A DNA stretch of 61,913 nucleotides, from NCBI GenBank assembly GCA_021785435.1, contig JAJYFE010000004.1, positions 1 to 61,913 on the forward strand, in the 5' to 3' direction. The first letter of the stretch is position 1, and every line of letters starts with the position of its first letter. This stretch comes from Planctomycetota bacterium. Its GTDB lineage: Bacteria; Planctomycetota; Phycisphaerae; WQYP01. Shown piece after piece: positions 34,072 to 50,345 of the stretch. The notes beneath the pieces are model-generated. The model worked only from the letters and a program-made list of their open reading frames with translations. It had not been told where the DNA came from and searched no databases. Position numbers and translations under genes: made by a program.

Positions 34072-34817
34072 ACCAGCCCCGACAACGACAACTGCTGGAA
34101 GCCTTCGGCGTCGACGATCGCCACCGGAACGAACGCCTTCAGCGAAACCCACTCGCTAAGCGCACGCCGCGGGAGCCGGCCCGCCCGCAGCTGAATTTCC
34201 CCAAGCGTCCGGGGGGCCTGCCACTCTCCCCGGGCTTCGACGGGGTCGCCGGGTTGGTGCGATGCGGGCCCGGGCGATGGCGCGAAAGGGGACGGGGGCC
34301 GCGGGGCCGCGGCGAGGCCCCCAGGCCAATACAACAGGCCTGCCTCGCCGCCTTGCGAACACCGCTCGTAGAGCCGCGCCAGTAAATCAGCAAGGCGCCG
34401 GCCCGCATCCCGACAGTCATCCTCCATGGTTGCAGCAGGGGTGTCAGCCGACACGCCGACGGTCACGCACGGGTCGCTCGCGAGGCGAAGCTTCCCCTGC
34501 GCCAAGCCGTCGGGCGGGAACAGATAGGCCATCGTGGCGATCCCCCGAACCGCGATGTCTTCCCGGACCAGTTCGTCGCGCCAGCCTGGTCCGACGCCGG
34601 AGGGCTGCGCGGGCGCATCGATAAGCTGCCGGTAGTCCAAGGCGAACAGCGGGTTGGGCGCGCCGAGAAGGTGCAGCACGGCGTGGAACCCCCGGCTGCA
34701 CGGGGACCATAGCCGCGTCGGCGCGGCCGGGGTTGCGGCGAGTGCCTCGCGGAACGCGCTTTCCAGCGCCGTGCTCCACTGCTCGGGCGTACCCGCCCGC
34801 CTCCCCGCCTGGCTCAC
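34065..34817 (-). CDS. Hypothetical protein (third gene of the HipA-like module)
   Basis: 250-aa ORF starting 11 nt after the HIRAN-like gene. No recognised domain. Its TGA stop (34065-34067) lies inside remnant IV, in a different frame from the MTase tail. A decayed paralogue sits at 27125-27530. Confidence 0.5.
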   Translation of the reverse strand: MSQAGRRAGTPEQWSTALESAFREALAATPAAPTRLWSPCSRGFHAVLHLLGAPNPLFALDYRQLIDAPAQPSGVGPGWRDELVREDIAVRGIATMAYLFPPDGLAQGKLRLASDPCVTVGVSADTPAATMEDDCRDAGRRLADLLARLYERCSQGGEAGLLYWPGGLAAAPRPPSPFAPSPGPASHQPGDPVEARGEWQAPRTLGEIQLRAGRLPRRALSEWVSLKAFVPVAIVDAEGFQQLSLSGLVG

Positions 34818-34827
34818 CGACGTTCTC

Positions 34828-35601: not shown

Positions 35602-36542
35602 ACCTTGACCTTCCTCAACTCCGCCATTGTATAGCGCAGGACATCCCGACAGAAGTCCTTCTGAATAGCGGTCATGCACGTGTTGGGAACCCGATCGACT
35701 GGCAAGATCACGCGGGCTTCTTCGAGGGCCCGCAACTTTTCGAGCCATGGCTTCGCCAAGGCGGGGTCCTCCTGGGCGAGACGCCGCAACAGCGCCATTG
35801 GGCTGGGGCCGCACCGCGCGTGCGCGTCCCAGTAGATTCCGCCACGGCCTCTTTCCACGTATTGTCCGATGCGTCCGTGGCGTATCAACTCAAGGCGCCG
35901 GGCGTCGGTCAGTTCGCGCCCAAGGGAGGAAGCATGGTCGTAAGAAGGGGCCACGGAAATTTCGACGTCCACGGGACCATCCCGGCGGGTCTCCAGGATC
36001 GCCCAATTTTCGTGGTGGCGATCGGTATTGCCGATCCAAGCGTCGAACACGATCAGCCCCACCAGCTGCGCCAGATAGGGCCGGGCGCCGCTCTCGGGAA
36101 AGCGGGCTTCGACTGCCTTGCGAATGTTGGCCCAGCGGTGATCGGCCTGCCCGCGACGCTTGGCCTTATCGTAGCCCGTCACCCATTTCCCCAGGAGCTC
36201 GTTTCCATGGACAAGCTCGCCCAGCCGAATGTGATGCGAAAAGGGGTCATATTGATGGGGAATAAAGGACCGGGAGGCGGTTCCGACCACCCCCTGGTAG
36301 CGTGCCAACTCCACCCGCGCCACCGGCAGGCCGATCAGGGGCGCTAGTTCGGCGGCAATTTTCTCCGCCCAATGCTCGCCCGTTCCCGGCCGTGGGTACT
36401 TAAAAAGCCACCGGCGGGGGTCGCTGTCGACAGAAAACCAGAATTTGGTCTTGGTCCCAAACAACTCCGTGTCAAGCCGCTGGAAATCGTGCCGACCCTC
36501 CCGCAAGTCCCAAACGTCGTACTCACCGGGCTCGCCACTCAT
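35598..36542 (-). CDS. HipA-like Ser/Thr kinase domain protein
   Basis: Catalytic-loop motif DAWIGNTDRHHENWAIL (HipA_C-like). Upstream GTKTKFWF...LFKYPRPGTGEHWAEKIAAELA. No HipB-type HTH gene is adjacent. Confidence 0.7.
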   Translation of the reverse strand: MSGEPGEYDVWDLREGRHDFQRLDTELFGTKTKFWFSVDSDPRRWLFKYPRPGTGEHWAEKIAAELAPLIGLPVARVELARYQGVVGTASRSFIPHQYDPFSHHIRLGELVHGNELLGKWVTGYDKAKRRGQADHRWANIRKAVEARFPESGARPYLAQLVGLIVFDAWIGNTDRHHENWAILETRRDGPVDVEISVAPSYDHASSLGRELTDARRLELIRHGRIGQYVERGRGGIYWDAHARCGPSPMALLRRLAQEDPALAKPWLEKLRALEEARVILPVDRVPNTCMTAIQKDFCRDVLRYTMAELRKVKV

Positions 36543-36730
36543 GGGGGCTGCGCTCCCTTAAATCTGCGAAATTCCTCCATCGTCGTGTGTTTCACTTCCT
36601 GCGGCACGATCGGAAACGTCGCGAATATGTGCGCGAATTCCTCTTCGGCTAAGCTGTGCCAACGGGCGATAATGGCGTCGAGCCCGGCGCGGAGCCGGGG
36701 CCGCCCGAATCTTCCATCCCTTGGCGAGGC
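36539..36730 (-). repeat. MTase 3-prime-end remnant III (diverged)
   Basis: My translation gives RDGRFGRPRLRAGLDAIIARWHSLAEEEFAHIFATFPIVPQEVKHTTMEEFRRFKGAQPP*, against the MTase tail KDGVTDPAKRLKLRAELDAIIAYLYGLTEEEFAHILGTFPIVPQEIKDATLAEFTRHV. Its frame ends in a TGA that overlaps the ATG of the HipA-like gene. Confidence 0.7.
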
Positions 36731-37671
36731 TGTAATGGGATGGCCCCACCTGGAGCCAAAGCCATGACCTGCTGTTTTATTAATCTGGCGCCCTCGTGGT
36801 TCTCAATGATTTTGAATGCGGCGCTGTTCATGAGGGCGTGCATGTAGCAATGATGAACGGTTAGCACCAAATCCTGGAGTTGCTGGTCCTCTTCAATCAG
36901 GACGACTTTCAGGCCCATCTTTATGCACTCGTCGGCGTGGATATGCCTGCTGTGGGCCTTGTGGCTGCGGTAGTCGGCGAGCCTTCTGGCTATCTTCGAC
37001 GCTTTGGCATCCGCGTCGGGCTCACCGGCGAACATGACTTTCGACAGCTGCTCACGTACGAAGCCATTGGACCAGTCGATGGCGTTGGAGCACTGCCCCA
37101 GAAAGGTGGGATGATATTTTCCGATAATAGGCTGCCAGACCGCGGCCCTGGCGGGGTCGGATTTAATTTCCTTGACCGCCTGCTTGAATTCCCGTATCAC
37201 ACCCTGGGCGGGAACTCCACGTACCTGTGGGTCAATAGGACCGAGATTAGACTGCTTGCCCATCAATATTTCCCTGCACGAGCAAGCCATGACCGTACCC
37301 GCCGACATGGCGATTTGCGGCACGATAGCGCGAATGTTGCGGTCGAACATTTTTTGCAGGTAGTCAACGATGGACTGGGTGGACGCAATATCACCCCCCG
37401 GCGTGTGCAGGATGAGATCTAGCCCCTGGCTCCGATCGAGCTTATGCACGGCCATCATGAAGCCGTTTTTGTCTTCATCGTTTATCTCCGCGCCGACGAT
37501 CTGCGGCTTGGAAAGCCAGCCCGAATAATAGGCAATAATGTTACGTGTCGTGCGCTGATGAAGCTGGCCAAGGTACTTTTTTCGAACCGAGTCCAAAGCC
37601 TGCTGGGCCATCGCCTGGTGGCTGAGGATTTCTTGATTAATCTCGTTTTGGACATCGCCCCAATTCGGCAT
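36649..37671 (-). CDS. SDH-family ClpP-fold serine protease (SppA/ClpP-like)
   Basis: LDLILHTPGGDIASTQSIVDYLQKMFDRNIRAIVPQIAMSAGTVMACSCREILMGKQSNLGPIDPQ matches the serine dehydrogenase proteinase family pattern. The last ~27 codons are read from remnant III in a different frame, so the native C-terminus may be replaced. Confidence 0.7.
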   Translation of the reverse strand: MPNWGDVQNEINQEILSHQAMAQQALDSVRKKYLGQLHQRTTRNIIAYYSGWLSKPQIVGAEINDEDKNGFMMAVHKLDRSQGLDLILHTPGGDIASTQSIVDYLQKMFDRNIRAIVPQIAMSAGTVMACSCREILMGKQSNLGPIDPQVRGVPAQGVIREFKQAVKEIKSDPARAAVWQPIIGKYHPTFLGQCSNAIDWSNGFVREQLSKVMFAGEPDADAKASKIARRLADYRSHKAHSRHIHADECIKMGLKVVLIEEDQQLQDLVLTVHHCYMHALMNSAAFKIIENHEGARLIKQQVMALAPGGAIPLQPRQGMEDSGGPGSAPGSTPLSPVGTA

Positions 37672-38019
37672 ACGACCCTCACCTCGCTGGCGCGGGCCAC
37701 GGCGTAGTGGTTGTTGTGATGGTGGGCACCGCGGGGAACGGCCAGGGCTGCTCGAGCGAGTAACTGTCCCCGGGGGAAACCGCCGGCGCGGTTATCCCGG
37801 CGCTCCGGGAGAGATAGCGCCGATAAAGAAGAGCCAATTTCGCGGCCTCCGATCCCGCCCTGTGGTATGCGGGACCAACTCGCCGCTTCCTCCGGTGTCC
37901 AGGTTGTTTGCCCGACCGTCCCATTATTATCTCCTTTCTCGGTGAGTTGATTCACCAATCAGTTTAGCCGCTACGGGACAGGCGTCAAATAGCCCGCGAT
38001 GCGCAGTGGCGCATCCGCG

Positions 38020-38130
38020 ACTTAAATTCCGCCATCGCCGCGTCGTCCACCCCCTGCGGCACAATGGGAAATGTCCCCCCAACATGTGCGCGAACTCTGC
38101 TTCGGTTAAGACGTACAAATGGGCGGTGCT
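38020..38130 (-). repeat. MTase 3-prime-end remnant II (diverged, frameshifted)
   Basis: Two track ORFs carry its halves: ...AHLYVLTEAEFAHMLGG (37927..38292) and GGTFPIVPQGVDDAAMAEFKSRMRH (37985..38176). One extra C in gtcccccc causes the frame change. Confidence 0.6.
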
Positions 38131-38286
38131 GGGGTGGGACAATTTTTCGGGGGTGGAATCCCCGCTGATAGTCCACCGCCAGTTCTCGAACGCGGCCTCC
38201 CGTAGCCGGCCATGTCCCGGCCGTTCAGTCGCCTGGGCGACCTGGCGGAGCGATGCGGGTACGCGCTTTGACCGCGGCGCCGATGG

Positions 38287-38362
38287 GGGCATCGGCGGCT
38301 ACATGGCCGATGAGGGCATCGGCGGCTACATGGCCGATGAGGGCATCGGCGGCTACATGGCC
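38287..38362. repeat. 27-bp tandem repeat, 2.8 copies, each unit a hairpin
   Basis: GGGCATCGGCGGCTACATGGCCGATGA at 38287-38313 and 38314-38340, plus a 22-nt partial copy at 38341-38362. Stems CATCGGC/GCCGATG. Lies 25 nt downstream of the MTase stop codon. Confidence 0.9.
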
Positions 38363-38387
38363 CCGGGGCGCGGGGGTATGCGGCAGG

Positions 38388-41300
38388 TTAAACGTGCCGG
38401 GTAAATTCCGCCAACGTGGCATCCTTGATTTCCTGCGGCACGATCGGAAACGTCCCCAATATGTGGGCGAATTCTTCCTCGGTTAAGCCGTACAGATACG
38501 CGATGATCGCGTCCAATTCCGCCCGCAGTTTCAGCCGCTTCGCGGGATCGGTTACGCCGTCCTTGTGGCTTTTCAGACCCACCGACTTGGCCAGCTCATC
38601 AAATTCCGGCGTGGTGCAGATCAGCCGCGCGGCACGTTCCACAATCGGTGCGAAGGCCGGGTCTTTCTCGGTCAGGCGCGGGACGGGCAGTTGGTAGACG
38701 TAGAAGAAGTTCACGTTGGCCGAGACTCGCTGGCGAATGATGTAGTCCAACGCCAAGGCGTCGAGGATGGCGGCAGCCCACAGGCGGACAGGGCCATGCG
38801 CGAGCCAAACGCCGTCCGCAGCGGCGAACTCGCCCGCCTGGAAACTGTTGGCGCAAAACGACGGCGGGGCGACCGTTGTTACCAGCGTCCGCTGGTCCGT
38901 GTTTCGTGCGATGTTCCTGAACCCCAGCCGGTAATCCTGATAATCCAATTTCTGGCCCGTGTCCGGCGTGCGGCCCAGGATTCTTGCCCGGCCCTTCTTT
39001 TCATCCACCCAATAGCGCGGCGGGGCCAGCTGATGATCGAACTGCCAGATCATTTTGCCTTCATACAGCGGCAATTTTCCTTTGCCCGGACTGGTCTCAA
39101 ACAAATCGCTGTCGTTCGTCATGTTGAGCTCCTGGGCGAACCGTACGTTCCAATTGCCTTGGATTTTTTCGCCCAGCAGCGGGAATTTCAGCATCTTTTC
39201 CGCGATCTGCACATCCAGATCGCACTTGAATTCCATGATGGAAAGCGAATCCGGCGAAAGCCGCCGCACCAGATCAACGGCTATCTCCAGGCCTCCCTGC
39301 CGGGGAAAACCCTCCAGTTCGGCCACATCGTGGCGCATGAACGCGGCAGGAAATTCCACCGTCTGGCCGCCCTTTTGAAAGGTCAAAACGACGAACTTGA
39401 AACTACGGTGCACGCCCTCAAAGATTTCCTTGCGATTCTCAAAACCAAACAGGCCAGTGATGTGGGTTTCTTTAAACAGCATTTCCCGCAACTGCTTGCT
39501 GCCCAAATCGGTATAAATGCCGGAGGGAATCACAATACCGCAAAGCCCGCCGGGGCGCAGCAGGTTGAAGCACTGTTCGGTGAACAACTTGTATAGGTTA
39601 ATCTTCGAAGCCGGGGTGCGCCCGCTGGCGTCGGTTGACAGCTGGTTTGGGTATTGGGCGGAGAGCTTAAAATACCTCGACGGGTGGGGAAACTCGCTGG
39701 AGTATGCAAGCCACGCCTCCCGCACTCTGCGATCTTCCATTATCGCGGCGCGCTGGGCCACCCAGTCCTCGATGCGGAGGCTCTTCTTGGTAATTGAGGG
39801 AATGTATTCTTGGAAAAATTCTTTCTCGTCGGTCTGGAAGACCTCCCACGGCGGATTGGTGATGATGGCGTCGAAGCCGCCGTTTTTATTTAGCACCCGG
39901 TCGAATTCAAAGCCCCAATGAAACGGTTTCAGTCGCTGGATATCGGCCAGGCCCAGCGGTCGCTTCTTCGGCCGGCCCTGAACCTTTTTCACCCCATCCC
40001 ACGTCGCCTGCTCGAACTTGATCCCCAGCCGCTCGAACTCGCCGAGCAGCAGGTCATCGAGCACGGCGGCGCAGGCGCGCTTGAGGGAATCGATGTTGTT
40101 GCGCAGGGCGGTTAAATCGTCGGCGTAGGTAGCTGTCCGGCGATAGTTGTCAATCCGCCGATTTTTGTCTTGCAGAATTTCCTGGTATGTCCGCTGGCGG
40201 AACAGCTGCCCCTGTTTTTGTTCAAACGATTTATCATCCACCCGCATCAGGCCGATGAGCGAATTGCCGGGCAGAATGTTAAAGTCGATATTCGGCAGCG
40301 GCTCGAGCTGATCGACGGTTTCGGCGGAGGAACCCAGCGCCAGAAACAACCGCAGGCGGGCGATTTCCACGGCCTCTTCCATCAAATCCACGCCGAAAAG
40401 ATTATCCGTAATGATGCATTTCTTGATGAAGTAGTCGATGTTGGAGTGCTTTTTTTCGATGTCGGCCAGCCAGGCGGAAAGCTCGGGATCATGCAGAAAT
40501 TTAATCTGGCCGATGATGGGAGAATAAATGCCGATCAGCGTATTCATGGCGGCCACCAGAAAGGCCCCTGATCCGCAGGCCGGATCCAGCAGTGACAGAT
40601 TCGGCAAAACATCATGGATCAGCTTGTGACACAGCGGGGCATCGAGATCAATCAGCAGATCGGCCACCGACTCATAACGGCGGGTTTTTACCCCCGCCAG
40701 GGTCGGCACGCCGGGGGACGTGTTGGCGGCGTCGAGAATCAGGCGGTGGATGGTCCGTTCGCAGAGATATTCCGTGATTTCCGGGCGGGTGTAATAGGCG
40801 CCGAAGGCTTTCTGGTTGATATATTGCTCAAAGATGTAGCCGAGAACGTGCGGGCTGATTTCGCGGTCATTTTCGCCGGGCGCGTCGTTAAGATTCCAGG
40901 AATAGGAGGCGAACAGCTGGAAAAGTTTATCGAAGAAGGCGTCAGGAATGGCGATATTCTGGTTTTCGGTTTCGATGCGGTGCGGCAGAAACAGGCCGCC
41001 GTTGAGGTAGCGGATGTTGCCGAGCTCGGTACGGGCGGCGGGCGAGCGTTTTTCCGGCGGTTTGGCGAAGCCTTCAAAGAAAAGCAGTTGCAGAAAATCG
41101 CGGTAAAAGCGTTCGGGGCCCTGGCGGCGGGAGGCCTGCAGCTTACGCTGCAGGTAGTCGATATCGCCGTCACGGGCTTGGGCGTCCCGGTAGTCGAGAA
41201 ACCCCTTGCGCTGCAGGAAATAGATGAACATCAGGCGGTTTAAGAGAATGGAGGCGTACCAGCGGCGATCGTGGTCCGTGGGTATGCCCTGGATCAGCTC

Positions 41301-41939
41301 CACCAAGTTGTCGTGGATACCCTCGAATTCCCTGAAAAAGCGTTTGGTGACCCGTTGGACATCCAGCGCCGCCTGGAGTCGCTGCGTAACTTCGGTCAGT
41401 TTGATGCGTCCATCGGAATCAAATTCCGAGATGTCAAAATGGATGGCGCCCAATTTGCTGATGAACAGATCGCCGGGCTGGCCGGCGGCGAAGAGATGCT
41501 CGCGCGGCACGGTTTTGCCATTTTCACGCTTGACCCAGCGCCAGAGGCTTTGGGTGCCGTTGGCGTCAACGAAAATCAGGAGGCATTCATACTGCAGCTG
41601 GGAGATTCCCTTATGGATGGCGGCGCGGGTTGGGGCGTCGGGTATGGCGGCGGATTCAACTTGATAAACGCCCACGCCGGCCAGATCGGCAATATGGCGG
41701 CGGGTAAGCTGAAGGCCATCGATGGCCATGGGAATCCCGTCGCGGCGGCCGGGGGGCGGATTCGACCAGCCCAAGTGTTCGATGAACAGCTCGCCGAATT
41801 TAAATTGGCGCAGGCATTCGCGCACGGCGGGAAAATTCAACCGCGCGGCGGCATTGGGCCGGGCATGAAGATTCTCCGTGCCCGGGGCGAGTTCGCGGTG
41901 GAGGGTAGACATGACGGCAATTATGGCCGAGGTGCGCAC
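38388..41939 (-). CDS. Eco57I/PglX-like gamma-class N6-adenine DNA methyltransferase, type IIG-like large protein
   Basis: Motif X AFGAYYTRPEIT, motif I LLDPACGSGAFLV, motif IV ITNPPWEVF, the N-terminal block ILLNRLMFIYFLQRKGFLD, and a long C-terminal TRD-like region ending LYGLTEEEFAHILGTFPIV. The track start is GTG at 41939; an alternative ATG is at 41912. Confidence 0.85.
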   Translation of the reverse strand: MRTSAIIAVMSTLHRELAPGTENLHARPNAAARLNFPAVRECLRQFKFGELFIEHLGWSNPPPGRRDGIPMAIDGLQLTRRHIADLAGVGVYQVESAAIPDAPTRAAIHKGISQLQYECLLIFVDANGTQSLWRWVKRENGKTVPREHLFAAGQPGDLFISKLGAIHFDISEFDSDGRIKLTEVTQRLQAALDVQRVTKRFFREFEGIHDNLVELIQGIPTDHDRRWYASILLNRLMFIYFLQRKGFLDYRDAQARDGDIDYLQRKLQASRRQGPERFYRDFLQLLFFEGFAKPPEKRSPAARTELGNIRYLNGGLFLPHRIETENQNIAIPDAFFDKLFQLFASYSWNLNDAPGENDREISPHVLGYIFEQYINQKAFGAYYTRPEITEYLCERTIHRLILDAANTSPGVPTLAGVKTRRYESVADLLIDLDAPLCHKLIHDVLPNLSLLDPACGSGAFLVAAMNTLIGIYSPIIGQIKFLHDPELSAWLADIEKKHSNIDYFIKKCIITDNLFGVDLMEEAVEIARLRLFLALGSSAETVDQLEPLPNIDFNILPGNSLIGLMRVDDKSFEQKQGQLFRQRTYQEILQDKNRRIDNYRRTATYADDLTALRNNIDSLKRACAAVLDDLLLGEFERLGIKFEQATWDGVKKVQGRPKKRPLGLADIQRLKPFHWGFEFDRVLNKNGGFDAIITNPPWEVFQTDEKEFFQEYIPSITKKSLRIEDWVAQRAAIMEDRRVREAWLAYSSEFPHPSRYFKLSAQYPNQLSTDASGRTPASKINLYKLFTEQCFNLLRPGGLCGIVIPSGIYTDLGSKQLREMLFKETHITGLFGFENRKEIFEGVHRSFKFVVLTFQKGGQTVEFPAAFMRHDVAELEGFPRQGGLEIAVDLVRRLSPDSLSIMEFKCDLDVQIAEKMLKFPLLGEKIQGNWNVRFAQELNMTNDSDLFETSPGKGKLPLYEGKMIWQFDHQLAPPRYWVDEKKGRARILGRTPDTGQKLDYQDYRLGFRNIARNTDQRTLVTTVAPPSFCANSFQAGEFAAADGVWLAHGPVRLWAAAILDALALDYIIRQRVSANVNFFYVYQLPVPRLTEKDPAFAPIVERAARLICTTPEFDELAKSVGLKSHKDGVTDPAKRLKLRAELDAIIAYLYGLTEEEFAHILGTFPIVPQEIKDATLAEFTRHV

Positions 41940-42182: not shown

Positions 42183-42728
42183 CTATTTCCGGGGGATCAC
42201 CCGCATGACGACAATCTCGCAAAGCATGCCGCTCTGGTTGTGGATATACCGATCCGCCGCGGCAATCGCCGCCTGGTCATGCAGGTAGCGATCACTGCCG
42301 CCCCGGGTCCACCAACGGCGCGGCGCTCCGGCGGCTTCGCTCAAGGCGGCGCTGCTTACGCCCTTGATCACACGCCGCACGGCGGGGCCGTCAGCGGGAC
42401 AGTTCGTTATGAGGCTGTGGATATGATTGGCCATGCACGCGGCGCGGAGGATAACCCAGTCGCGTTCGACGGCGGCCTGGCGGATAGCCTCGGCGGCGAC
42501 GCGGGATTCCGCTTGCGTCAACCAAACTGTGACGTGCTCTTGAAATCTCCTGGCGGCGGCGAGGGTGGCCGGATCATCCTGACCGCACGGCGTGCCGCGC
42601 TGGTTCCGCTTTCGCTCGTATGCTCCGCCAGGCAACAGCGTGTTGGAAACATAGCCGCGTGGATCACCAGGAAGCCAGGTGCCGTAGGTGGTCCAAGTGA
42701 TGAACAGGGCGAAAGGCGATACGGGCAT
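42183..42728 (-). CDS. REP-associated tyrosine transposase-like protein (IS200/IS605 Y1 HUH family)
   Basis: FITWTTYGTWLPGDPRGYV N-terminal block, HUH motif MANHIHSLI, and catalytic Tyr context RYIHNQ. Flanked on both sides by REP hairpins. I chose the ATG at 42728; the track's GTG at 42749 lies inside a REP. Confidence 0.7.
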   Translation of the reverse strand: MPVSPFALFITWTTYGTWLPGDPRGYVSNTLLPGGAYERKRNQRGTPCGQDDPATLAAARRFQEHVTVWLTQAESRVAAEAIRQAAVERDWVILRAACMANHIHSLITNCPADGPAVRRVIKGVSSAALSEAAGAPRRWWTRGGSDRYLHDQAAIAAADRYIHNQSGMLCEIVVMRVIPRK

Positions 42729-42748
42729 GGGCGCTCCGTCGGATGACA

Positions 42749-42769
42749 CCGCCGGGATAAACCCGGCGG
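42749..42769. repeat. REP hairpin, inverted orientation (CCGCCGGG-ATAAA-CCCGGCGG)
   Basis: Same stem as 41964 with the loop reverse-complemented. Immediately upstream of the RAYT gene. Confidence 0.85.
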
Positions 42770-42882: not shown

Positions 42883-43065
42883 TCAGTCTTTCCCCCGTAA
42901 CCCGAGCGAACAGATGATCCGCGGATCGAAATTGGCCGGGTCTTCCGTGACGTTGCACAAGTCGTTATCGGCTCTTAAATCGCTCACCAACCGGCCCAGC
43001 GCCTCATCATCCATGCCTTCCCGGATGCAGCCGGCCGGGCGCCCTGTTTCGATCGCCGTACTCAT
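42883..43065 (-). repeat. Helicase 3-prime-end remnant (direct repeat of 46946-47080)
   Basis: 42905-43023 matches 46962-47080 at 118/119 nt by my manual alignment. Encodes ...REGMDDEALGRLVSDLRADNDLCNVTEDPANFDPRIICSLGLRGKD, against the helicase C-terminus ...REGMDDEALGRLVSDLRADNNLCNVTEDPANFDPRIICSLGLRG. Confidence 0.9.
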
Positions 43066-43082
43066 TCTGCGTTCCCACTTGG

Positions 43083-43104
43083 CCGCGGGGTTTATTCCCG
43101 GCGG
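43083..43104. repeat. Degenerate REP hairpin CCGCGGGG-TTTATT-CCCGGCGG
   Basis: Same family with one stem mismatch and a 6-nt loop. Confidence 0.6.
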
Positions 43105-43127
43105 GGGAAGGGCGCCGGTTTACACCC

Positions 43128-43784
43128 CTACAGTTCCGGCGCATGGTGGGTCAGGTGCTTGAAGATGTGCACCGCTAAGTGTCCGAAGTTCCCTTGCATC
43201 GCTTGCTTCATAATGAAAGTGTAATCGGAATGATCCGGGCGCTGACGGACCCTAAATTGCGGCGGTACGCCAAACCGCAATAGGCCCCAAGCCCACAGCA
43301 GACGGGACAGCCGGCCGTTCCCATTGATAAAAGGGTGCACCTGTATAAACCGCCCGATCATCGTGCCGAGGATAATGGCCAATCTCTTGGCGCGTTCCTG
43401 TGGTGACAGCTCCGGCCAGTCGAGCTCCAGTGCAACGGTGTATCGGCGCAGGTGATCGAACAGCCGCTCCATCTCGGAAACCACGGTTTGGTACGGTGCG
43501 CCGGGGGTTCCTTCCACCCGGACATCTGTTTGCAGGCAAGGGCGTAGCGGATCAATTTGCCGATAGTTTCCGGCGTAATAGTCGAGTGGGACGTGGTGTG
43601 TGAACAGGGTGCGGTGCCAGTCACGGCAGGCCGGCGAATCGACGATTTTTCGCTTGGCGGCCGCCGCAGCCGCTCGATAGGCCGCGGCGACGGAGGCGCG
43701 GAAAGTTCCTTCCCTGGTCTCGGGGCCGTCCGAAGACCACTCCGGACAATTACCGGTGTAGGGCCTGGTCATCGTCATCCGCAA
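43128..43784 (-). CDS. Fic/DOC family protein
   Basis: Canonical Fic motif HPFINGNGRLSRLL. Overlaps the upstream small gene by about 35 nt. Confidence 0.85.
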   Translation of the reverse strand: MRMTMTRPYTGNCPEWSSDGPETREGTFRASVAAAYRAAAAAAKRKIVDSPACRDWHRTLFTHHVPLDYYAGNYRQIDPLRPCLQTDVRVEGTPGAPYQTVVSEMERLFDHLRRYTVALELDWPELSPQERAKRLAIILGTMIGRFIQVHPFINGNGRLSRLLWAWGLLRFGVPPQFRVRQRPDHSDYTFIMKQAMQGNFGHLAVHIFKHLTHHAPEL

Positions 43785-44157
43785 GCAGGTTAATTTGTTC
43801 GTCGGTCAGATCCGATGCATATGGAGCGGCGGCCGGATCTCGGAAGTGTTCCGACGCCTTTTGTGCCAATTTGTCGAAATCGAGTCCTTGCTGCCTGACG
43901 ATCTGTCGCATGGACGACTCGGCGCCTGCGAAATCAATGGCCATCGGATTCCATGGGGACGCCGCGGAGGCGGGACATTCAGTATGACCGTAGGGCCACT
44001 GCCCGATCGTCAGAGGCTGCTGGATGTCGCGCCTGATTGAACCTACACGCTCACCCAGTTCCTTTACTGTTGACATCCAATCCCAGTATCCCGTCTCCGG
44101 GATGCTGGCAGGTGGCTTCCGCGAACCAGCCGCGTATTCCTCTGCAACCAATATCAT
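43750..44157 (-). CDS. Hypothetical protein X2 (acidic C-terminus; candidate Fic partner)
   Basis: 135-aa ORF. Its ATG forms an ATGA overlap with the stop of the TIGR04255-like gene (44154-44157). No recognised domain. Confidence 0.5.
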   Translation of the reverse strand: MILVAEEYAAGSRKPPASIPETGYWDWMSTVKELGERVGSIRRDIQQPLTIGQWPYGHTECPASAASPWNPMAIDFAGAESSMRQIVRQQGLDFDKLAQKASEHFRDPAAAPYASDLTDEQINLLADDDDQALHR

Positions 44158-44885
44158 CGAATCAGCTCCCTGGCTTTATCCGTGATCGACCCCTCAAAAA
44201 ACCTGTTCTCGGTATCGTGAAGCAGTTCCAATCGTTCCGAAAAATTATAGGGAATGTTCCCGGTCTGGAATACGTCTATATCCACAAGCACGGACGCCAC
44301 CCCCTCCCTTGTCGGCGGAACTAACGCCTCATTACATATAATCATTCCCGGTAAGTCCGCCTGCGGGATTTGTAATTGCATGGCAAAGCCGCTCAGCCCC
44401 GCCGGCAGTCCGCCGCCGATTTCCGGCGCGGTGGAAAGGTAATCCTTAAAATCCCGAAATGGCAACGGCAAGTCAAACCGGTTGGTGTAGCGCACCGCCA
44501 ACCGCATGATTTCCTTGGGCTTCACGATCGCCTCATACCACCGCCAGAGGCGCAAAAATTCATCGCGAAGTTTTTCCCACGTTTCGTACGGCGTCAGCCG
44601 ACTAACGGTCAGCCCTTCCTGTCGCGTCTGGAACACATACTTGTGCTCGGCACGGCCACCATGGGAATAACCGATTTGCCTGAATTCCGGTTTCGCAGCG
44701 CCGCCGGGCGCCACTTGAATCATGATATTGCCAGTGAGGACTGGGGTTACAGTGGGATAATCCGCCTTGATCTCCGCTGAGGGGGAATTAAAGGCGGCCC
44801 AGTCAATCCAAGTGTCGTTCTTCACCTGGACATCAATCAGGGCCTGAATAATGGGCGCCCGGCTATAGTGTGTTCTTTGCGGCAT
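44154..44885 (-). CDS. TIGR04255-like uncharacterised family protein (copy 2)
   Basis: 243 aa: MPQRTHYSRAPIIQALIDVQV..., RLAVRYTNRFDLPLP, VLVDIDVFQ, HDTENRFFEGSITDKAREL. Same layout as the 29544..30365 product. Confidence 0.5.
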   Translation of the reverse strand: MPQRTHYSRAPIIQALIDVQVKNDTWIDWAAFNSPSAEIKADYPTVTPVLTGNIMIQVAPGGAAKPEFRQIGYSHGGRAEHKYVFQTRQEGLTVSRLTPYETWEKLRDEFLRLWRWYEAIVKPKEIMRLAVRYTNRFDLPLPFRDFKDYLSTAPEIGGGLPAGLSGFAMQLQIPQADLPGMIICNEALVPPTREGVASVLVDIDVFQTGNIPYNFSERLELLHDTENRFFEGSITDKARELIR

Positions 44886-45092
44886 TCGCGGTGATCCTAC
44901 CCGGTGCTAAGGTGACCCGCAACTGGCAAGCTACTTCGCCCTCCCAGCCAAATGGTTCGATGGACAACTCGCGGAGCTTGCACTGACGCGGCAGGTCGCG
45001 CGTGGCGGAAAAATTAAGGGCATGAATCCGGCGCTCCGTGGTAATCGAGATCGGGCCATCCGGCGAAGGTCAGGCTGGTCCCGGCGTAACCG

Positions 45093-45620
45093 TCACTCCA
45101 ACCGGAACCCTAAGCGCTCGCGTGCACTTATCGGGGGATCGAGGCTCGCGTTAAGCTTGATACCCACCGCGCGCACAAAATGGTGATCGCCGATGCAGGC
45201 GATATTCAACTTCGCGCAGACCTCCGGAATGCCGTAGCGATCGGGGCCGCGGTTCTTGACGGTTTCCCGCGTCACCACCGTGGCCCCTGCTTCCCACGCG
45301 GAGGCGATCACCCACGGATCAGCCAGGTCGCGGCCCTTTCGCGTGTCGACAAGGCGCGGGTAGCCGAGGAGAATTTCCCGCATCCGCCTTTGCATCGGCT
45401 CGCTCAGCGGCTCGAATAACCCCCTCGTGCCATTGGCCCATTTGAAAAGGCCATCTTCCCTTTTCTCCAGTTCACGCCGAACTTCTTCCGGGCAAAAGAT
45501 GATCCCCTTACCGGCGAGATCGCGGAGGATGTCCCAATAGTCCGGGCACAGATCAGGGGCGTAATATCCCGTCCACGGGCGGATCAGAGCGTTTGTATCG
45601 AGGCAATAGCGCGTGTTCAA
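45093..45620 (-). CDS. DUF4411 PIN-like nuclease
   Basis: RYCLDTNALIRPWTGYYAPDLCPDYWDILRDLAGKGIIFCPEEVRRELEKREDGLFKWA fits the DUF4411 pattern. The TTG start overlaps the stop of the ImmA/IrrE gene (TTGA). Confidence 0.65.
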   Translation of the reverse strand: MNTRYCLDTNALIRPWTGYYAPDLCPDYWDILRDLAGKGIIFCPEEVRRELEKREDGLFKWANGTRGLFEPLSEPMQRRMREILLGYPRLVDTRKGRDLADPWVIASAWEAGATVVTRETVKNRGPDRYGIPEVCAKLNIACIGDHHFVRAVGIKLNASLDPPISARERLGFRLE

Positions 45621-46798
45621 CGGACGCCCCCGGACACGCCCACGCGCTGGAGAAGCTGTGCCATTCTCGGAAACAGGTTGACCTTCAGATCAAGAAGGTC
45701 GGACGCCTCGGTCGCCGTGGCGTAGTCATCGTAGTACGCCCGCAGCACATCCTCCGTGAACGCACGCCCGTTATATGCAAGCCTCAGCGTGAAATAGCTG
45801 GGGCTGCCTTCACGTCGCGGCCGGCCCGCCCGCTGCGCCCATCTCTGCGCCAAGCTTTGATGTAACCGCTCGTAATCGGATGAGGAAATCGAGCGCCGCT
45901 CGAGCAGCATGCGCGCGATGACCTCCTCGCTGACCCTAAGCCGATCGGAGAGGTGCGCGATCAGCTCGGGGCGGGACAAGGCACGCGCCCGACCCCGTTC
46001 GCCCTCGAAGGCCTCTGGCGCCACCAGCAGGCCGGCGGCGGTGCGGTTGCAGAATGTCTCTATCCGTGCCGCGTCGCCCAGCGCCTCGCCGCCGGTCAGG
46101 GCAAGGTTCGATACACCTGATTGGCCCAGCCAGATGTGCGCCAATTCATGGGCCAACGTGAACAGCTGTCCCGCTACGGCGTCTTTCCCATTGATCCATA
46201 TGATCGGCGCCCATGGATCGCTGAGCGCCAGTCCGCGCGCCTCCGGCAGCTCGATCCCGGGGTCGCGGCGAACGCAGACCCCCGCTTCTTCCGTGCGGGC
46301 GACCCAGTAGCGCAGCGCCTCCGCCTGCGTCCGGCGGTTCCGGTGCCAGAATATATCTACACGCAGGGTGGACCGAATCGCGCGGGACAAGGCCGCGGCA
46401 TCCCGGTCTTGCCCCGAGCTGACGAAGGCCAGCTCGGATTCCCCGGTGTCCCGGCGGTATTCCGCAAGCCACTTCTGCCGGTAGTCCAGAGAGCGCGCCA
46501 AGAAAAGAAATTCCGGGCTGAAATGTCGTGGCACGTCGCCGGGAAGCCGGCGAAAATCACGCGGGGTGGCAAAATCCAGCGGCGGCTTGGACACATAGAA
46601 TACCGCCAGCGGCCGCCTATAGACCTGTGCCGCTTTGCGCGCCTGCGCCAGGGACGGATGGTCGGTCCCCGCCTCCCAGTGATCCAGCGCTTCCGACGTG
46701 ACGCCTATGCACTCGGCCGCCACCGTCTTGTCGTAGCCCGCCTGCTCGCGCGCCCATTTGAGAACTGCGGGCGTTATTAGGGCTTGGATGTGTGACAC
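45617..46798 (-). CDS. XRE-HTH + ImmA/IrrE zinc metallopeptidase fusion
   Basis: N-terminal HTH (LKWAREQAGYDKTVAAECIGVTSEALDHWEAG) and the HExxH motif in FTLAHELAHIWLG. Confidence 0.8.
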   Translation of the reverse strand: MSHIQALITPAVLKWAREQAGYDKTVAAECIGVTSEALDHWEAGTDHPSLAQARKAAQVYRRPLAVFYVSKPPLDFATPRDFRRLPGDVPRHFSPEFLFLARSLDYRQKWLAEYRRDTGESELAFVSSGQDRDAAALSRAIRSTLRVDIFWHRNRRTQAEALRYWVARTEEAGVCVRRDPGIELPEARGLALSDPWAPIIWINGKDAVAGQLFTLAHELAHIWLGQSGVSNLALTGGEALGDAARIETFCNRTAAGLLVAPEAFEGERGRARALSRPELIAHLSDRLRVSEEVIARMLLERRSISSSDYERLHQSLAQRWAQRAGRPRREGSPSYFTLRLAYNGRAFTEDVLRAYYDDYATATEASDLLDLKVNLFPRMAQLLQRVGVSGGVR

Positions 46799-46945
46799 GG
46801 CCTATTTTCCCCTTTCCATCGCCCGCATGTCGATCGGGGCTTTTTTAGGCGGACGCTGGCCGCCGGCGGTTCCACTGTGCATCGCGGTTGATCCTAACGG
46901 AGGCGCGCGGCCTTCGCAAACTACCCCTGCACTGCTACGGTTGTA

Positions 46946-49900
46946 CTACCCCCGCAACCCCAGCGAACAGATGATCCGCGGATCGAAATTGGCCGGGTCT
47001 TCCGTGACGTTGCACAAGTTGTTATCGGCTCTTAAATCGCTCACCAACCGGCCCAGCGCCTCATCATCCATGCCTTCCCGCATCCGGCGGGCCAGCTGAT
47101 CGCGGGCGGTATCCTTCAGCGGATAGTGGTATATCTCCTCGATCACTTTGTCCAGGTCCGGGGCTTGGTACAACGTATTGGCCGTGCGGGCGTGGAAGGC
47201 CGTCAACCGGGCATAAAGCTGGCGGCGGACGCTGCGCGCGCCGCCCAGTTGGCCGCCGACGCGGCTTTGGTCTCGGGCCGCCAGCTCGAGAGCCTTGTCA
47301 ACGAGCGCATGGTGCTCCGGCAGACGCGGCGCGGCCGGTTCGTCCGGCGCGCAGGCCGCGGTGTTCAAAATGTCGCGGGGTGATTCGGTCACAATTTGTT
47401 TTTGGTTGTCCAGCTGGATCAACGTATTGTTTCCCGGCGAACTCTGAATAAAGGCGATCACCCCGTTGGATGCGCCGCGGCCTGGCGCCGCCCCGCGGGT
47501 GGAATAGATAACGTCGGGCAGCCCCTGGACGGCGGCGGCGAGCTGGGGGTTGTTTTTGACGGCGTTTTGCCAGATTTCATAAGCCACCGAGGATATGTCC
47601 ACCTCCGCTTCATCCTGCTCGTCGAGCGCGTGGGCCGTTTCGTTGTACAAATTCCGCAGCAGCGGCAATTCTTTTACCGGATCGCCCTCGATGAACATTT
47701 CATCCGAGCCGATCACCTCGCCCTCCTCCCGCTGCCGTTGCCGGATGCGCTGATGCAGCCGAATGATGCGTTCCACCCCGTCGGCGGGCAGAAAACTGTA
47801 ACAGAGAATCCGCTCCGCCCGCTGGCCGATGCGGTCCACGCGTCCCACGCGCTGGATCAGGCGAATCAGCGCCCAGGGTAAATCGTAATTGACGATAATG
47901 GCGCAGTCCTGCAGATTCTGGCCTTCGCTTAGCACGTCCGTGCTGATGAGCACGCGCAATTCCTCGGCGGCAGCAACTTTACCGCGCGCGGCGTTGCTCT
48001 CCGGGCTGAAGCGATGGGCCAGCGCGGTGGGATTTTCACTTTGGCCCGTGACCGCGGCAAAATTGCCGATGCCGGCTCGCCTTGTCGAGTCGCCTTCTTC
48101 GGCGACCTGCTGAAGCTGGCGCTGCACATAATTGGCGGTGTCGGCGAACTGGGTGAAAATCAGCACCTTCTCGCGTGGATGGGTCTGCTGCAGCAGCTGA
48201 AGTAGTTTCTGCAGTTTGCGGTCATGGCGCGGGTTCCAGGGGCCGATCAGCGCTTGGATCTTCTCCAGCGCAGCAATATCCGCCCTTAGATGCTCCGCCA
48301 GGTCCGCCTCGAAAAACGCCGCCGGGAGCCAGCGGTATGATCGGTTAGCGCGGCAGTCGGCATAGAGGTCTTCGATCTGCTCGGCGGACTCGACCACCGG
48401 CGTTGCATTTTCGTGGTCGTCCTCGTCGACGCCAAACAAGTCATCGGCGTCGGTCAGGCTCGTTTCAAAGATGGCCGCATTACTGGAACCGATCGGAACC
48501 TCCAGGCCATGCTCCAGGGCGTATAGCGCCACTTTATCGCGCAGAATGTGGCGGTCCATGGTCAGTTCAAACGCAGCCCCGCTGCTTTCCAGACGCTTAA
48601 ATAAGCTGGTGCGGCAGAAGCCGATAAGGTGCTTTCCCGCGCGGGCGAGGTCGTCGATGACGGCCTGGTGTTCGGCGGTGCTGTCCGGCCAGTGCAGCGC
48701 CGCTTTGACATAATTGCCCAACCCGTAACGCGGCAGGTGCAGGGAATTGACAGCGCTAACCGTCGGGTCGCTGAACATGCGGGCGTATTGGTCGTGGGGG
48801 TCTTTCTCATCGATAGGAAATGTCAGGCTCTTGGGAACCCGGTCGGGGAAATAAGATCGCCGGCCGTCGTGGAAGCATAGGTACGCCCGGCCCTGATGAC
48901 CATCCGTTCGGGCATAGTTCTTTTTGATAGAGCCGCGCGTGCGGCGGATAAGAAATTGGTCCATCAGCAGCCGCCAGTCCTCGGCATGGTCGCTTTTTTC
49001 GAAGGCCACGATGGTGTGGGGATCCGCCTGGGTCCGGGCGGAAAGCACGTCGAGTCCCTCTTGGCGGATGAAATGCTCCGGCCGCACAGGCAACTGGCGA
49101 TCCGGGGCCAGAAAAAGCCGCAACTGGCTCGACAGGTCCAGGAGAGTCTTATTGTAGGGCGTGGCCGTCAGGAGAATCACCGCACTTTTGTTGCGCTCCA
49201 GGTAATCGCGAATGGCCTTGTATTTTGCGGTCTCGCGGTTGCGCAGATTGTGGCTTTCATCAATTAATACCGTACGGTATCGCTTCTCGTCCTTAAGCTG
49301 ACGATCCACGAGACTAAGCGACAGGATTTTACCGATGATATGGTACTGATAGAGATAATCCTCCCACATGGGGACCAGGTTGCGCGGGCAGATAATAAGC
49401 GTTTCGTGTTGCTTTTCTTCCTGCAGCGCCTTGGCGACGGCGGAACCCATCAGCGTTTTGCCCAGCCCCACCACGTCGCCGATCATCACCCCGCCATGGC
49501 GGCTGATCTTACCCATCGCCCGCTTCACCGCCTCGATTTGGAAATCCAGCAGGCGGTTGCCGAATTCGTCGGGAATATCGAACTGCTCTTCACTCAGACG
49601 GGCATCGGCGGAAAGGTGGTACGCCATCTTCAAGTAAATATGGTACGGCGGCGGCTGGGTTTCCCTGGCCCAACTGGTCTGCACAATCTCCAGAAGCTCC
49701 GCCGAGATATCCCAACACAGCCGGTCCTCCCAGCGGGCCTGAAACCACGCGGCCAGCTTGGCGCAGGCATCCTGATCCGGCACGTCAACGTTCAGTTCCC
49801 CTTGATGGCACAGGCCGGCCATCGTCAAGTTGCTGCTGCCGAGATAACCAATCCTGGGGCTCAAGGGGTCGGGACGGAACAGCAGGTAGAGCTTGGCATG

Positions 49901-50314
49901 CAACGGATGACGCAGAAACAGTTTGACGATCAGTTTCCCGGCGCGAATCTGCCCCGCCAGGCGCTGCAGGCCAGCCTCGTCGGCATCGCTGGGCGCGCCG
50001 ATCTGCAATTGCCGGCGGAACGTTTCCGCCAGCGATTTTTTCAGGCGCATAGCCTCGGCGTTGTCGGGGACGTTGGCGGCGGGGCTGGAGCGCAACAGGG
50101 TCCGTAAATCTTCTTCGGGAGGCCGCTGCATGCCCACCAGCAGCCGGCAACAATGTCCCTCGCCACCGGACCATTTCTCCATGCAGTCAGCGAGGTTTTT
50201 CCAGCCGCGCAGATTAAAGTAACCGACGCAAAAATCGGCCCGATCCGATAATTGCATCGCCTGGCGCAGGGTCGGCAGGAGCGGTTGCTCGATGTTATCG
50301 AATATTTGCGGCAT
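46946..50314 (-). CDS. PLD-family nuclease domain fused to SNF2-family helicase
   Basis: N-terminal HKD motif LHAKLYLLFRPD...GSSNLT. SNF2_N motifs GDVVGLGKT, LIDESHNLRN, LLTATP. Helicase_C LISTDVLSEGQNLQDCAIIVNYDLPWALIRLIQRVGRVDRIGQ. The ATG at 50314 has AAGGGA about 6 nt upstream; the track start is TTG at 50329. Confidence 0.85.
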   Translation of the reverse strand: MPQIFDNIEQPLLPTLRQAMQLSDRADFCVGYFNLRGWKNLADCMEKWSGGEGHCCRLLVGMQRPPEEDLRTLLRSSPAANVPDNAEAMRLKKSLAETFRRQLQIGAPSDADEAGLQRLAGQIRAGKLIVKLFLRHPLHAKLYLLFRPDPLSPRIGYLGSSNLTMAGLCHQGELNVDVPDQDACAKLAAWFQARWEDRLCWDISAELLEIVQTSWARETQPPPYHIYLKMAYHLSADARLSEEQFDIPDEFGNRLLDFQIEAVKRAMGKISRHGGVMIGDVVGLGKTLMGSAVAKALQEEKQHETLIICPRNLVPMWEDYLYQYHIIGKILSLSLVDRQLKDEKRYRTVLIDESHNLRNRETAKYKAIRDYLERNKSAVILLTATPYNKTLLDLSSQLRLFLAPDRQLPVRPEHFIRQEGLDVLSARTQADPHTIVAFEKSDHAEDWRLLMDQFLIRRTRGSIKKNYARTDGHQGRAYLCFHDGRRSYFPDRVPKSLTFPIDEKDPHDQYARMFSDPTVSAVNSLHLPRYGLGNYVKAALHWPDSTAEHQAVIDDLARAGKHLIGFCRTSLFKRLESSGAAFELTMDRHILRDKVALYALEHGLEVPIGSSNAAIFETSLTDADDLFGVDEDDHENATPVVESAEQIEDLYADCRANRSYRWLPAAFFEADLAEHLRADIAALEKIQALIGPWNPRHDRKLQKLLQLLQQTHPREKVLIFTQFADTANYVQRQLQQVAEEGDSTRRAGIGNFAAVTGQSENPTALAHRFSPESNAARGKVAAAEELRVLISTDVLSEGQNLQDCAIIVNYDLPWALIRLIQRVGRVDRIGQRAERILCYSFLPADGVERIIRLHQRIRQRQREEGEVIGSDEMFIEGDPVKELPLLRNLYNETAHALDEQDEAEVDISSVAYEIWQNAVKNNPQLAAAVQGLPDVIYSTRGAAPGRGASNGVIAFIQSSPGNNTLIQLDNQKQIVTESPRDILNTAACAPDEPAAPRLPEHHALVDKALELAARDQSRVGGQLGGARSVRRQLYARLTAFHARTANTLYQAPDLDKVIEEIYHYPLKDTARDQLARRMREGMDDEALGRLVSDLRADNNLCNVTEDPANFDPRIICSLGLRG

Positions 50315-50345
50315 GCGATCCCTTACCAACCTAATTTCCTCAAGG

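Follow-up and report, generated by a model that had tools for sequence, protein, structure and literature searches.

A five-gene cassette bracketed by duplicated 3' ends of a PLD-SNF2 helicase gene in a restriction-modification-like locus of a Planctomycetota bacterium

Integrase-mediated islands and prophages enter the 3' ends of genes and restore the gene with an end of their own, examples being prophage e14 at icd and the MGIs at trmE and yicC, and tandem accretion of such islands can give arrays. At rhs and cdiA loci, arrays of promoterless 3' fragments lie downstream of the full-length gene and recombine with it by shared homology, and these orphans bear a variable tip together with an immunity gene. 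Passenger defence and toxin-antitoxin (TA) genes are furthermore embedded in restriction-modification (R-M) and BREX operons, e.g., PrrC within EcoprrI; to our knowledge these cases have not been described as bracketed by duplicated gene ends. TA modules were also reported in Type I loci, and a three-component TA module was described that combines HTH-DUF955 (ImmA/IrrE) with DUF4411 (Matelska et al., 2017, PMC5499597). A further process is insertion with long target duplication (Nobusato et al., 2000, Gene 259:99; Furuta et al., 2010, PMC2853133). It comprises a block of <20 kb without mobility genes, flanked by repeats of >30 bp that duplicate the target (PMC2853133). The repeats often cross the stop codon of a gene, related genomes carry the empty site with a single copy, and the repeats can later drive amplification or loss (PMC2853133). 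The published screen selected inserts with R and M genes inside (Furuta et al., 2010, PMC2853133).

The window, i.e., the whole 61.9-kb stretch of DNA analysed here, encodes a helicase-methyltransferase (MTase) module, in which the 3' end of the helicase gene is present twice and encloses five further genes. The features are as follows:

46946..50329, minus strand: PLD (HKD) nuclease and SNF2 helicase, first module gene (Pfam PLDc_2, SNF2-rel_dom, Helicase_C, ResIII)
46949..47093, minus strand: right (active) repeat copy, the last 48 helicase codons (core 46962-47080)
45617..46798, minus strand: fused HTH (XRE) and ImmA/IrrE M78 metallopeptidase (Pfam HTH_3, Peptidase_M78)
45093..45620, minus strand: DUF4411 PIN-like nuclease (Pfam DUF4411, E=2e-36)
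44154..44885, minus strand: TIGR04255 family protein (NCBIfam TIGR04255, E=1e-28)
43750..44157, minus strand: X2, a 135-aa ORF without family match, hypervariable in its N-terminal half
43128..43784, minus strand: Fic/Doc family protein (Pfam Fic, E=1e-9; motif HPFINGNGRLSR)
43086..43107, no strand assigned: REP-like palindrome between the Fic stop and the orphan tail, resembling the REP consensus CCGCCGGGTTTATCCCGGCGG
42892..43036, minus strand: left (orphan) helicase-tail copy, inside a 60-codon ORF (42883-43065)
42183..42749, minus strand: RAYT-like (IS200/Y1-type) gene (Pfam Y1_Tnp, E=6e-4, below the curated cutoff)
38388..41939, minus strand: Eco57I/MmeI-type (Type IIG-like) N6-adenine MTase, second module gene (Pfam Eco57I, MmeI_Mtase)

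The helicase has 'HKD+Snf2' as its top PADLOC match and more than 8000 homologues (E<1e-50), and residues L1105, C1106, E1110, P1117, I1119-S1122, G1124 and R1126 in its tail are invariant throughout the family. The MTase matches PADLOC REase_MTase_IIG (E=6e-110). No named defence system combining PLD-SNF2 with Eco57I was found in the literature.

The direct repeats 42892-43036 and 46949-47093 (145 nt, 95% identical, spacing 4057 nt; repeat search and MAFFT) terminate exactly at the helicase stop and differ at positions 47089, 47086, 47084, 47081, 47020, 46961 and 46955 of the right copy. This list reproduces the 118 of 119 identical positions that the first-pass annotation had given for 42905-43023 versus 46962-47080, and the alignment agrees with its extension to 42892/46949 with two further mismatches. 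Translation likewise identifies the right copy as the true end of the PLD-SNF2 gene (...SLGLRG*) and the left copy as an orphan tail with its own stop (...SLGLRGKD*), as had been proposed. Since only seven direct-repeat families of at least 40 nt exist in the window, the repeat is not a chance similarity, and an assembly artefact is ruled out because both copies, each with its own SNPs, are present in more than 10 independent assemblies. Nor is the left copy what remains of another, decayed helicase gene: over the 91 nt preceding it, the alignment to the helicase is no better than with shuffles, tblastn matched the tail alone, and the Fic gene lies 92 nt from the orphan tail.

The insert of 4057 bp holds the five genes named from the first reading (HTH-ImmA/IrrE, DUF4411-PIN, TIGR04255, X2 and Fic), as seen with Pfam and NCBIfam. 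The description of a five-gene block is right for the gene content; the block is nevertheless a composite and no single conserved mobile unit, because the closest ImmA-DUF4411 pairs stand alone, without the other three genes (L096 and L097), and the TIGR04255-X2 segment varies separately as a hypervariable allele: over 44832-43835, strains with at least 99% identity elsewhere differ at 20-30% of their nucleotides. Inverted repeats at the contig ends of L097 look like assembler end artefacts. The fused HTH-M78 gene, directly upstream of DUF4411 and overlapping its start by 4 nt, matches the described three-component module, in which the DUF4411 nuclease is the predicted toxin; unlike the plain module, it is here joined to a TIGR04255-X2-Fic segment. 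The Fic motif HPFINGNGRLSR agrees with the consensus HxFx(D/E/N)GNGRxxR, with N where D or E is usual, and the PADLOC matches of this protein to PDC-S04 and SoFic are weak. The genes would constitute two TA- or abortive-infection-like modules, i.e., HTH-ImmA with DUF4411 and TIGR04255-X2-Fic. A foreign composition of the cassette is not apparent, as its GC content (54-65% vs. 62% for the window) and its GC3 are not clearly distinct, and megablast gave no match of the cassette to a known plasmid or phage. Neither an integrase nor a transposase was found in the block (Pfam, NCBIfam and PADLOC on all five genes) or in the 61.9-kb window.

The empty site exists in relatives, which supports an insertion as origin of the repeat-bracketed block. 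In the closest relatives, L001 and L002, the helicase is directly followed by REP and RAYT, the same order that follows the orphan copy in the window, and the RAYT gene is a marker of the ancestral sequence downstream of the helicase. It is located between REP palindromes at 41958-42077 and 42747-42860 and outside the bracketed block; as for REP/RAYT acting as the agent, the REP-like element next to the Fic gene lies 50 nt upstream of the orphan and not at a REP-to-REP junction, and these observations speak neither for nor against such a role. The MTase follows the helicase directly in 68 of 83 informative relatives (L003 and 67 others), the median gap between the helicase stop and the first MTase residue in the alignment being 9 nt. 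Within the species, contig L092 from the most divergent strain (0.74-0.91%) has a single hybrid copy, in which the helicase body is joined to the orphan-type end (LRGKD*) and the orphan flank; the contig stretches just 22 nt past the repeat, and an assembly path switch across a 49-nt identical stretch could in principle have formed this junction. The helicase-(RAYT)-MTase state expected from a clean excision of the block is thus found in nature. The duplication of the helicase tail itself was found only in the species of the window and in none of 85 other loci, so that it is no general feature of the family, and the tail is no general insertion site either, as five other lineages carry inserts between helicase and MTase without tail duplication.

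The locus agrees with insertion with long target duplication in its repeats of >30 bp derived from the target (145 nt, one copy being the functional helicase end), in a block of <20 kb without a mobility gene (4057 bp, with the RAYT-like gene outside) and in the empty sites of relatives (L001, L002 and the 68 loci, and L092 with its 22-nt flank). The published cases carry R-M cargo, whereas in the window the R-M-like genes are the target, the insertion being at a 3' end within their operon, and the cargo is TA- or abortive-infection-like. Also unlike the published cases, the same kind of target was used serially at the partner MTase (five tail copies), and an apparent in-repeat crossover is documented between lineages that are ~4.5% diverged. 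The co-oriented position of TA/abortive-infection genes between genes for restriction-type subunits is shared with embedded passengers.

Two contigs carry the signature of crossovers inside the tail, with small SNP numbers. L092 is active-type at alignment column 93 and orphan-specific at columns 143 and 152, the pattern predicted for a reciprocal exchange in the interval from column 93 to column 143. Over cdsA and the helicase, L098 shares ~95.5% of its bases with the window (helicase divergence ~4.5%); then, beginning 12 nt within the repeat and running past the stop into HTH-ImmA, it has no mismatch over ~480 nt. This switch from divergent to identical inside the repeat indicates, from the SNP pattern, that tail and cassette were moved together by a second, independent crossover in the tail; if the donor homology had spanned the whole 3.4-kb gene, ~4% of crossovers would be expected to fall within its final ~130 nt. 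L098 is one contig that ends inside the cassette, before the point where an orphan copy would lie. The orphan copies of the helicase tail exist as several haplotypes, and the orphan of L086 and L099 has the bases of the active copy at two sites, which gene conversion would explain.

Taken together, the block is probably an insertion with long target duplication that needed no integrase and that homologous recombination via the 3' tail of the gene can both create and undo. Incoming DNA would carry the cassette behind its own ~145-nt helicase gene end, and this tail would pair with the resident helicase tail in a RecA-type homologous recombination. A Campbell-type single crossover of a circular molecule of tail and cassette would be one route, and a double crossover with the tail as short homology arm would be equivalent. 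The conserved C-terminus of the helicase would stay intact, and the second tail copy would come to lie beyond the cassette, beside the old downstream REP-RAYT-MTase. Both copies would stay substrates for recombination, so that deletion would restore the empty site, further copy-to-copy recombination would appear as gene conversion, and tail and cassette could be transferred into diverged helicase alleles. The sequences themselves show the insertion, the duplicated tail, the empty-site states, the crossovers within the tail and the lack of a recombinase or structured site; the RecA dependence, the circular intermediate and the function of the cargo are what we infer, and neither a circle nor its junction was seen. 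For the very first cassette to acquire a tail, an illegitimate join must still be assumed.

The first-pass annotation had seen the same architecture at the MTase gene and had taken both anchor genes as insertion points. Tail-bracketed cassettes are indeed present at both, and the arrangement is more pronounced at the MTase, which has four orphan tails:

31575..38617, minus strand: MTase-tail array, five tail copies with four cassettes between them
38403-38617: active MTase tail
38023-38078, 36570-36694, 33937-34151 and 31575-31789: orphan MTase tails
Cassettes of the array: 121-aa ORF; SDH/ClpP-like protease; HipA-like gene with two ORFs; PRTase with DprA-like gene

The array is polymorphic among sister strains: L100 and L105 are without two of the cassettes, and the flank of the second orphan tail of the window is in these strains the end of the active MTase. 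Orphan MTase tails are found at at least 14 other loci, ~12 of them independent, out of ~60 relatives with enough downstream sequence. Many of these tails resemble foreign tails more than the resident one, which agrees with the scheme proposed for the helicase.

It is conceivable, and suggested here only tentatively, that the conserved 3' tails of both module genes serve as portable homology arms and that the module is an integrase-free, integron-like cassette platform. Cassettes that bear a tail copy, or precede one, could then enter any genome that owns the module by homologous recombination, whatever the chromosomal context, and defence and TA cassettes could be stacked and swapped, the window containing one such cassette downstream of the helicase and four downstream of the MTase. 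In contrast to an integron array, no integrase is present and the repeats fold no better than shuffles, and no attC-type site was found; in contrast to rhs/cdiA, the orphans are the conserved end and the variable part consists of unrelated cassettes between them. Defence islands are known to gather genes at hotspots, while the arrival of genes without mobility functions is mostly inferred, and the locus offers a concrete and testable route for such cassettes, in which a short duplicated gene end would both keep the function of the target and give homology for gain, loss and exchange. If this were general for the common helicase-MTase module, R-M-like operons would nucleate defence islands without integrases, and orphan 3' tails would be a simple signature to delimit cassettes in metagenomes.

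An unlikely alternative to the reciprocal insertion is a homologous recombination at one end combined with an illegitimate join at the other, i.e., homology-facilitated illegitimate recombination or an allelic replacement. Here, a linear fragment with the 3' part of a helicase gene and the cassette would have crossed over somewhere in the helicase, and its far end would have been attached within the resident tail, at 43036/43037, by illegitimate joining; the orphan would then be entirely the old tail of the resident, a scar and no reciprocal product. Such events would suit the MTase locus, where the orphan tails are 56-215 nt long with a common 3' boundary at the stop and where the C-terminal third of the MTase is allelic among strains (break at ~39835). 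Orphan tails elsewhere are also often nearer to foreign alleles than to the resident tail, and in L030 a tail of the other MTase subfamily directly follows a window-type MTase. At the helicase, however, the change from active-type to orphan-type SNPs in L092 fits better with a reciprocal crossover, and the crossover in L098 lies inside the tail and not elsewhere in the 3.4-kb gene. The weight of L092 is limited by its few SNPs, and if it is a deletion product, it is silent on the route of insertion.

Far less probable is a site-specific integration, in which a tyrosine or serine recombinase from another part of the genome would act on an att site within the helicase tail, and the element would bring a replacement 3' end as e14 does at icd. 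The architecture is that of islands at 3' gene ends, with the end of the gene duplicated, the ORF preserved by the rebuilt end and the orphan end displaced beyond the insert, and the serial MTase arrays resemble tandem accretion at one att site. In contrast to such islands, neither the block nor the rest of the window nor the tail-bracketed cassettes at other loci encode a recombinase, and no fixed core is apparent: for L098 the inferred crossover lies at columns 45/46, for L092 and the main lineage it lies somewhere from column 93 to column 143, and the MTase repeats vary between 56 and 215 nt. The repeats also contain no structured or palindromic core, as neither those of the helicase tail (fold z = +1.3 and +2.0 vs. 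shuffles) nor those of the MTase tail (z = -1.7 and -1.1) form a hairpin, and no tRNA or Rfam matches were found.

Compatible with any insertion mechanism, and the least probable of the readings considered, is that the orphan is kept because the 60-codon ORF is expressed as a mini-protein with the C-terminal 44 residues of the helicase, acting as decoy or regulator of whatever binds the tail: the ORF opens with ATG and is uninterrupted, it is annotated as a gene in other assemblies, conservation of the tail extends across the family and an identical 60-aa product is encoded on 20 contigs in four nucleotide haplotypes with exclusively synonymous differences, but this last pattern is an ascertainment bias, since exact identity of the protein was the criterion by which the contigs were collected, a promoter search gave nothing above chance, and the orphan MTase tails are frameshifted or without starts. 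Gene conversion from the active copy would also keep the reading frame without selection.

A direct repeat of 145 nt (42892-43036 / 46949-47093; 95% identity, 4057 nt spacing) was found by repeat search and MAFFT alignment; across the entire window there are just seven direct-repeat families of at least 40 nt. In right-copy positions the seven mismatches lie at 47089, 47086, 47084, 47081, 47020, 46961 and 46955, and therefore the core 46962-47080 / 42905-43023 is 118/119 identical, the same figure as in the first-pass annotation. The five-gene block bracketed by copies of the helicase 3' end, which that annotation had described and read as an insertion, was confirmed as an observation, and its interpretation is supported. 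Every relevant gene of the locus is encoded on the minus strand.

Features of the locus in order of transcription
46949-47093, minus: right copy, tail of the PLD-SNF2 helicase gene, last 48 codons of a 1127-codon ORF ending ...SLGLRG*
45617-46798, minus: fused HTH and M78 (ImmA/IrrE) peptidase, first gene between the copies
45093-45620, minus: DUF4411 PIN-like protein, second gene of the block
44154-44885, minus: TIGR04255 family protein, third gene
43750-44157, minus: X2, 135-aa ORF with no family match, fourth gene
43128-43784, minus: Fic protein with the motif HPFINGNGRLSR, fifth gene
42892-43036, minus: left copy, orphan helicase tail within a 60-codon ORF ending ...SLGLRGKD*
42183-42749, minus: RAYT-like gene between REP palindromes, past the orphan tail
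38388-41939, minus: Eco57I/MmeI-type MTase, strong match to Type IIG models

The repeat homology has one limit at the stop codon; its other limit lies approximately 92 nt away from the stop of Fic. Alignment of the 91 nt between the orphan tail and Fic with the helicase scores no higher than that of shuffled sequence, and therefore the orphan copy does not terminate a longer helicase gene that has decayed, a possibility that had been raised against the insertion reading and that is ruled out. The helicase tail is probably preserved under selection, since its residues are invariant across the very large PLD-SNF2 helicase family, which counts roughly 8000 homologous loci. Depending on the strain, a run of five or six G immediately precedes the helicase stop (46949-46953), and this change in length converts the helicase end LRG* into LRGVVQP*, which was found in the proteins P0001, P0127, P0128, P0131 and P0133 and in the loci L087, L088, L100 and L106.

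The arrangement of HTH-DUF955 and DUF4411 is a predicted three-component toxin-antitoxin (TA) system (PMC5499597). The functions of the cargo as TA-like modules are predictions from family membership, and for the ImmA and Fic proteins PADLOC returned weak matches only. 3' of the orphan tail follow REP palindromes, the RAYT-like gene, further REPs and then the MTase. Housekeeping genes make up the remainder of the window (cdsA, sucA/sucB, miaB-like, an RND efflux system and pilus genes); no integrase and no tRNA is present in the whole window, and no Rfam family within its 27-51.5 kb region. Copies of the REP family with the consensus CCGCCGGGTTTATCCCGGCGG are located at 5629-5698, 41958-42122, 42747-42860, 43086-43107 and 60516-60530, those around the RAYT-like gene being in inverted orientation, and a 68-nt REP-containing unit is common to 5631-5698 and 42055-42122. 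Within the block, strains with at least 99% identity in both flanks differ by 20-30% over a segment of approximately 1 kb (43835-44832) that covers the TIGR04255 gene and the part of X2 coding for its N-terminal half; this is an allelic swap inside the cassette, and it accounts for the contig breaks there in five samples.

For comparison, related loci were collected from genomes and metagenomes, 85 in all, of which 83 were informative for the adjacency of helicase and MTase. It had been proposed that excision would restore a helicase-(RAYT)-MTase arrangement, and relatives carry this empty arrangement: the MTase immediately follows the helicase in 68 of the 83 loci (L003 among them), with a median distance of 9 nt between the helicase stop and the first MTase residue in the alignment, and the two closest relatives, the Planctomycetota MAG loci L001 and L002 (70-72% identity), have REP and a RAYT homologue directly after the helicase stop, the same context as downstream of the window's orphan copy. 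Neither homologues of the five cassette genes beside the helicase nor a duplicated helicase tail were found in any of the 85 loci. As judged from these sequences, the 4-kb block is an insertion. In another Planctomycetota lineage (L097 1-5075), whose MTase has 69% identity, an ImmA-DUF4411 pair with 62-65% identity to that of the window has the MTase on one side and a truncated, inverted remnant of RAYT on the other, with no helicase-tail copy; the ends of this contig carry inverted repeats of approximately 100 nt that resemble assembly artefacts.

The 90% identity cluster of the helicase contains 16 sequences, and the contigs from other samples form three groups, i.e., the cassette-bearing majority, L092 and L098. 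Most conspecific contigs share 98-99.9% identity with the window and have the cassette at the identical site. The contig L092 (GCA_027429515.1), the most divergent within these strains (0.74-0.91%), has the helicase body fused to an orphan-type end, its protein P0132 terminating in LRGKD, and an orphan-type flank of only 22 nt, as the contig stops just short of REP. In the alignment of the repeat copies, L092 is active-type at column 93 and orphan-specific at columns 143 and 152, and outside L092 T143 was seen in orphan copies only; such a structure is expected of a target site with no insert, or after a deletion whose crossover fell between columns 93 and 143. The contig L098 (ERZ27237313), which terminates within the cassette, is approximately 95.5% identical to the window over cdsA and the whole helicase and has zero mismatches over approximately 480 nt, from 12 nt inside the repeat through the stop into HTH-ImmA. 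Tail and cassette have therefore been transferred from one diverged lineage to another, and the left crossover of this transfer lies within the 145-nt tail. The orphan helicase tails comprise several haplotypes, and active-type bases at two sites of the L086/L099 orphan suggest gene conversion.

The 3' tail of the MTase (last 56-215 nt) is present five times in 31575-38617, once active and four times as an orphan, and at the peptide level all orphans keep the reading frame of the MTase (...RLKLRAELDAIIAYLYGLTEEEFAHILGTFPIVPQE...).

Orphan MTase tails downstream of the MTase gene, and the cassettes between the MTase tails
38023-38078: orphan MTase tail
36570-36694: orphan MTase tail
33937-34151: orphan MTase tail
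31575-31789: orphan MTase tail
Cassette 1: 121-aa ORF
Cassette 2: SDH/ClpP-like protease
Cassette 3: HipA-like protein and two ORFs
Cassette 4: PRTase and DprA-like protein

The sister strains L100 and L105 are without the first two MTase cassettes, and their active MTase end leads directly to the flank of the window's second orphan tail and the HipA-like gene; thus, the orphan flank of one strain is the active gene end of another. Orphan MTase tails were found in at least 14 further loci (L004, L005, L008, L023, L030, L033, L036, L039, L044, L051, L059, L063, L082 and L085), corresponding to approximately 12 independent cases, as L033/L036 and L044/L051 are apparently identical loci from different samples. 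These tails are often closer to foreign MTase tails than to the resident tail, and they are preceded by genes for Schlafen/AlbA_2-ATPase with ParA-like, CHAT, DprA-like, AAA_13 and DUF3800 proteins, with no recombinase among them.

The architecture, as read from sequence, corresponds to the "insertion with long target duplication" reported from Helicobacter and other bacteria for restriction-modification (R-M) gene complexes, where repeats of 30-400 bp, often across a gene start or stop, flank inserts without mobility genes and for which the mechanism was given as unknown (PMC2853133). The published cargo consists of R-M genes, whereas the cargo here is predicted to be TA-like modules; the window differs further in that the 3' ends of both genes of the R-M-like operon are the target, that the MTase end was used serially and that there is direct evidence of crossovers inside the duplicated segment. 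The locus looks similar to islands that an integrase inserts at gene 3' ends and to integron arrays, but the tests place it in neither class. The main rival reading is homologous recombination at one end combined with an illegitimate join at the far end; the first tail-bearing cassettes may have originated in this way, and many of the orphan MTase tails may be due to it. The observations agree with an insertion made through the gene tail by homologous recombination, with no integrase. In favour of this reading, crossover positions differ within the repeat, neither a recombinase nor a structured site was found, and repeat lengths vary yet always end at the stop codon. A circular molecule of tail and cassette would integrate by a single crossover in the resident tail, which would yield exactly the hybrid copies observed and would explain why the L098 crossover, in a gene of 3.4 kb, falls within its final ~130 nt. 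The duplicated tail makes the block prone to loss, which the predicted TA-like cargo could offset.

Further observations concern the MTase and its island. The C-terminal third of the MTase (38403-39835) has up to 114/240 mismatches between conspecific strains, the N-terminal two thirds being ~99% identical, which resembles an exchange of the target-recognition domain and would imply a different methylation specificity. In several relatives the MTase ORF runs past the conserved tail into a Schlafen/AlbA_2 domain of ~170 aa (L037 8202-8921, L059 8503-9222, L077 8766-9506, also L074 and L083), and the first gene past the MTase in L004 encodes AlbA_2 as a protein of its own. DprA-like genes are located downstream of the MTase in the unrelated loci L023, L041, L047, L053, L055, L056, L070, L072, L076 and L082, and in L023 and L082 this gene ends in, or precedes, an MTase-tail-like segment. 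As a 136-nt direct repeat (27145-27280 / 34266-34401, 76% identity), a fragment similar to the 3' part of the 250-aa cassette gene occurs a second time near the distal edge of the island, with no MTase tail after it. A second gene of the TIGR04255 family (29544-30557, E=3e-12) is located immediately past the last of the orphan MTase tails, between two ORFs (330 and 271 aa) that match no family. Finally, a 45-nt direct repeat (25906-25950 / 26027-26071, 91% identity, 121-nt spacing) is located inside an ORF bearing a prepilin-type N-terminal methylation motif.
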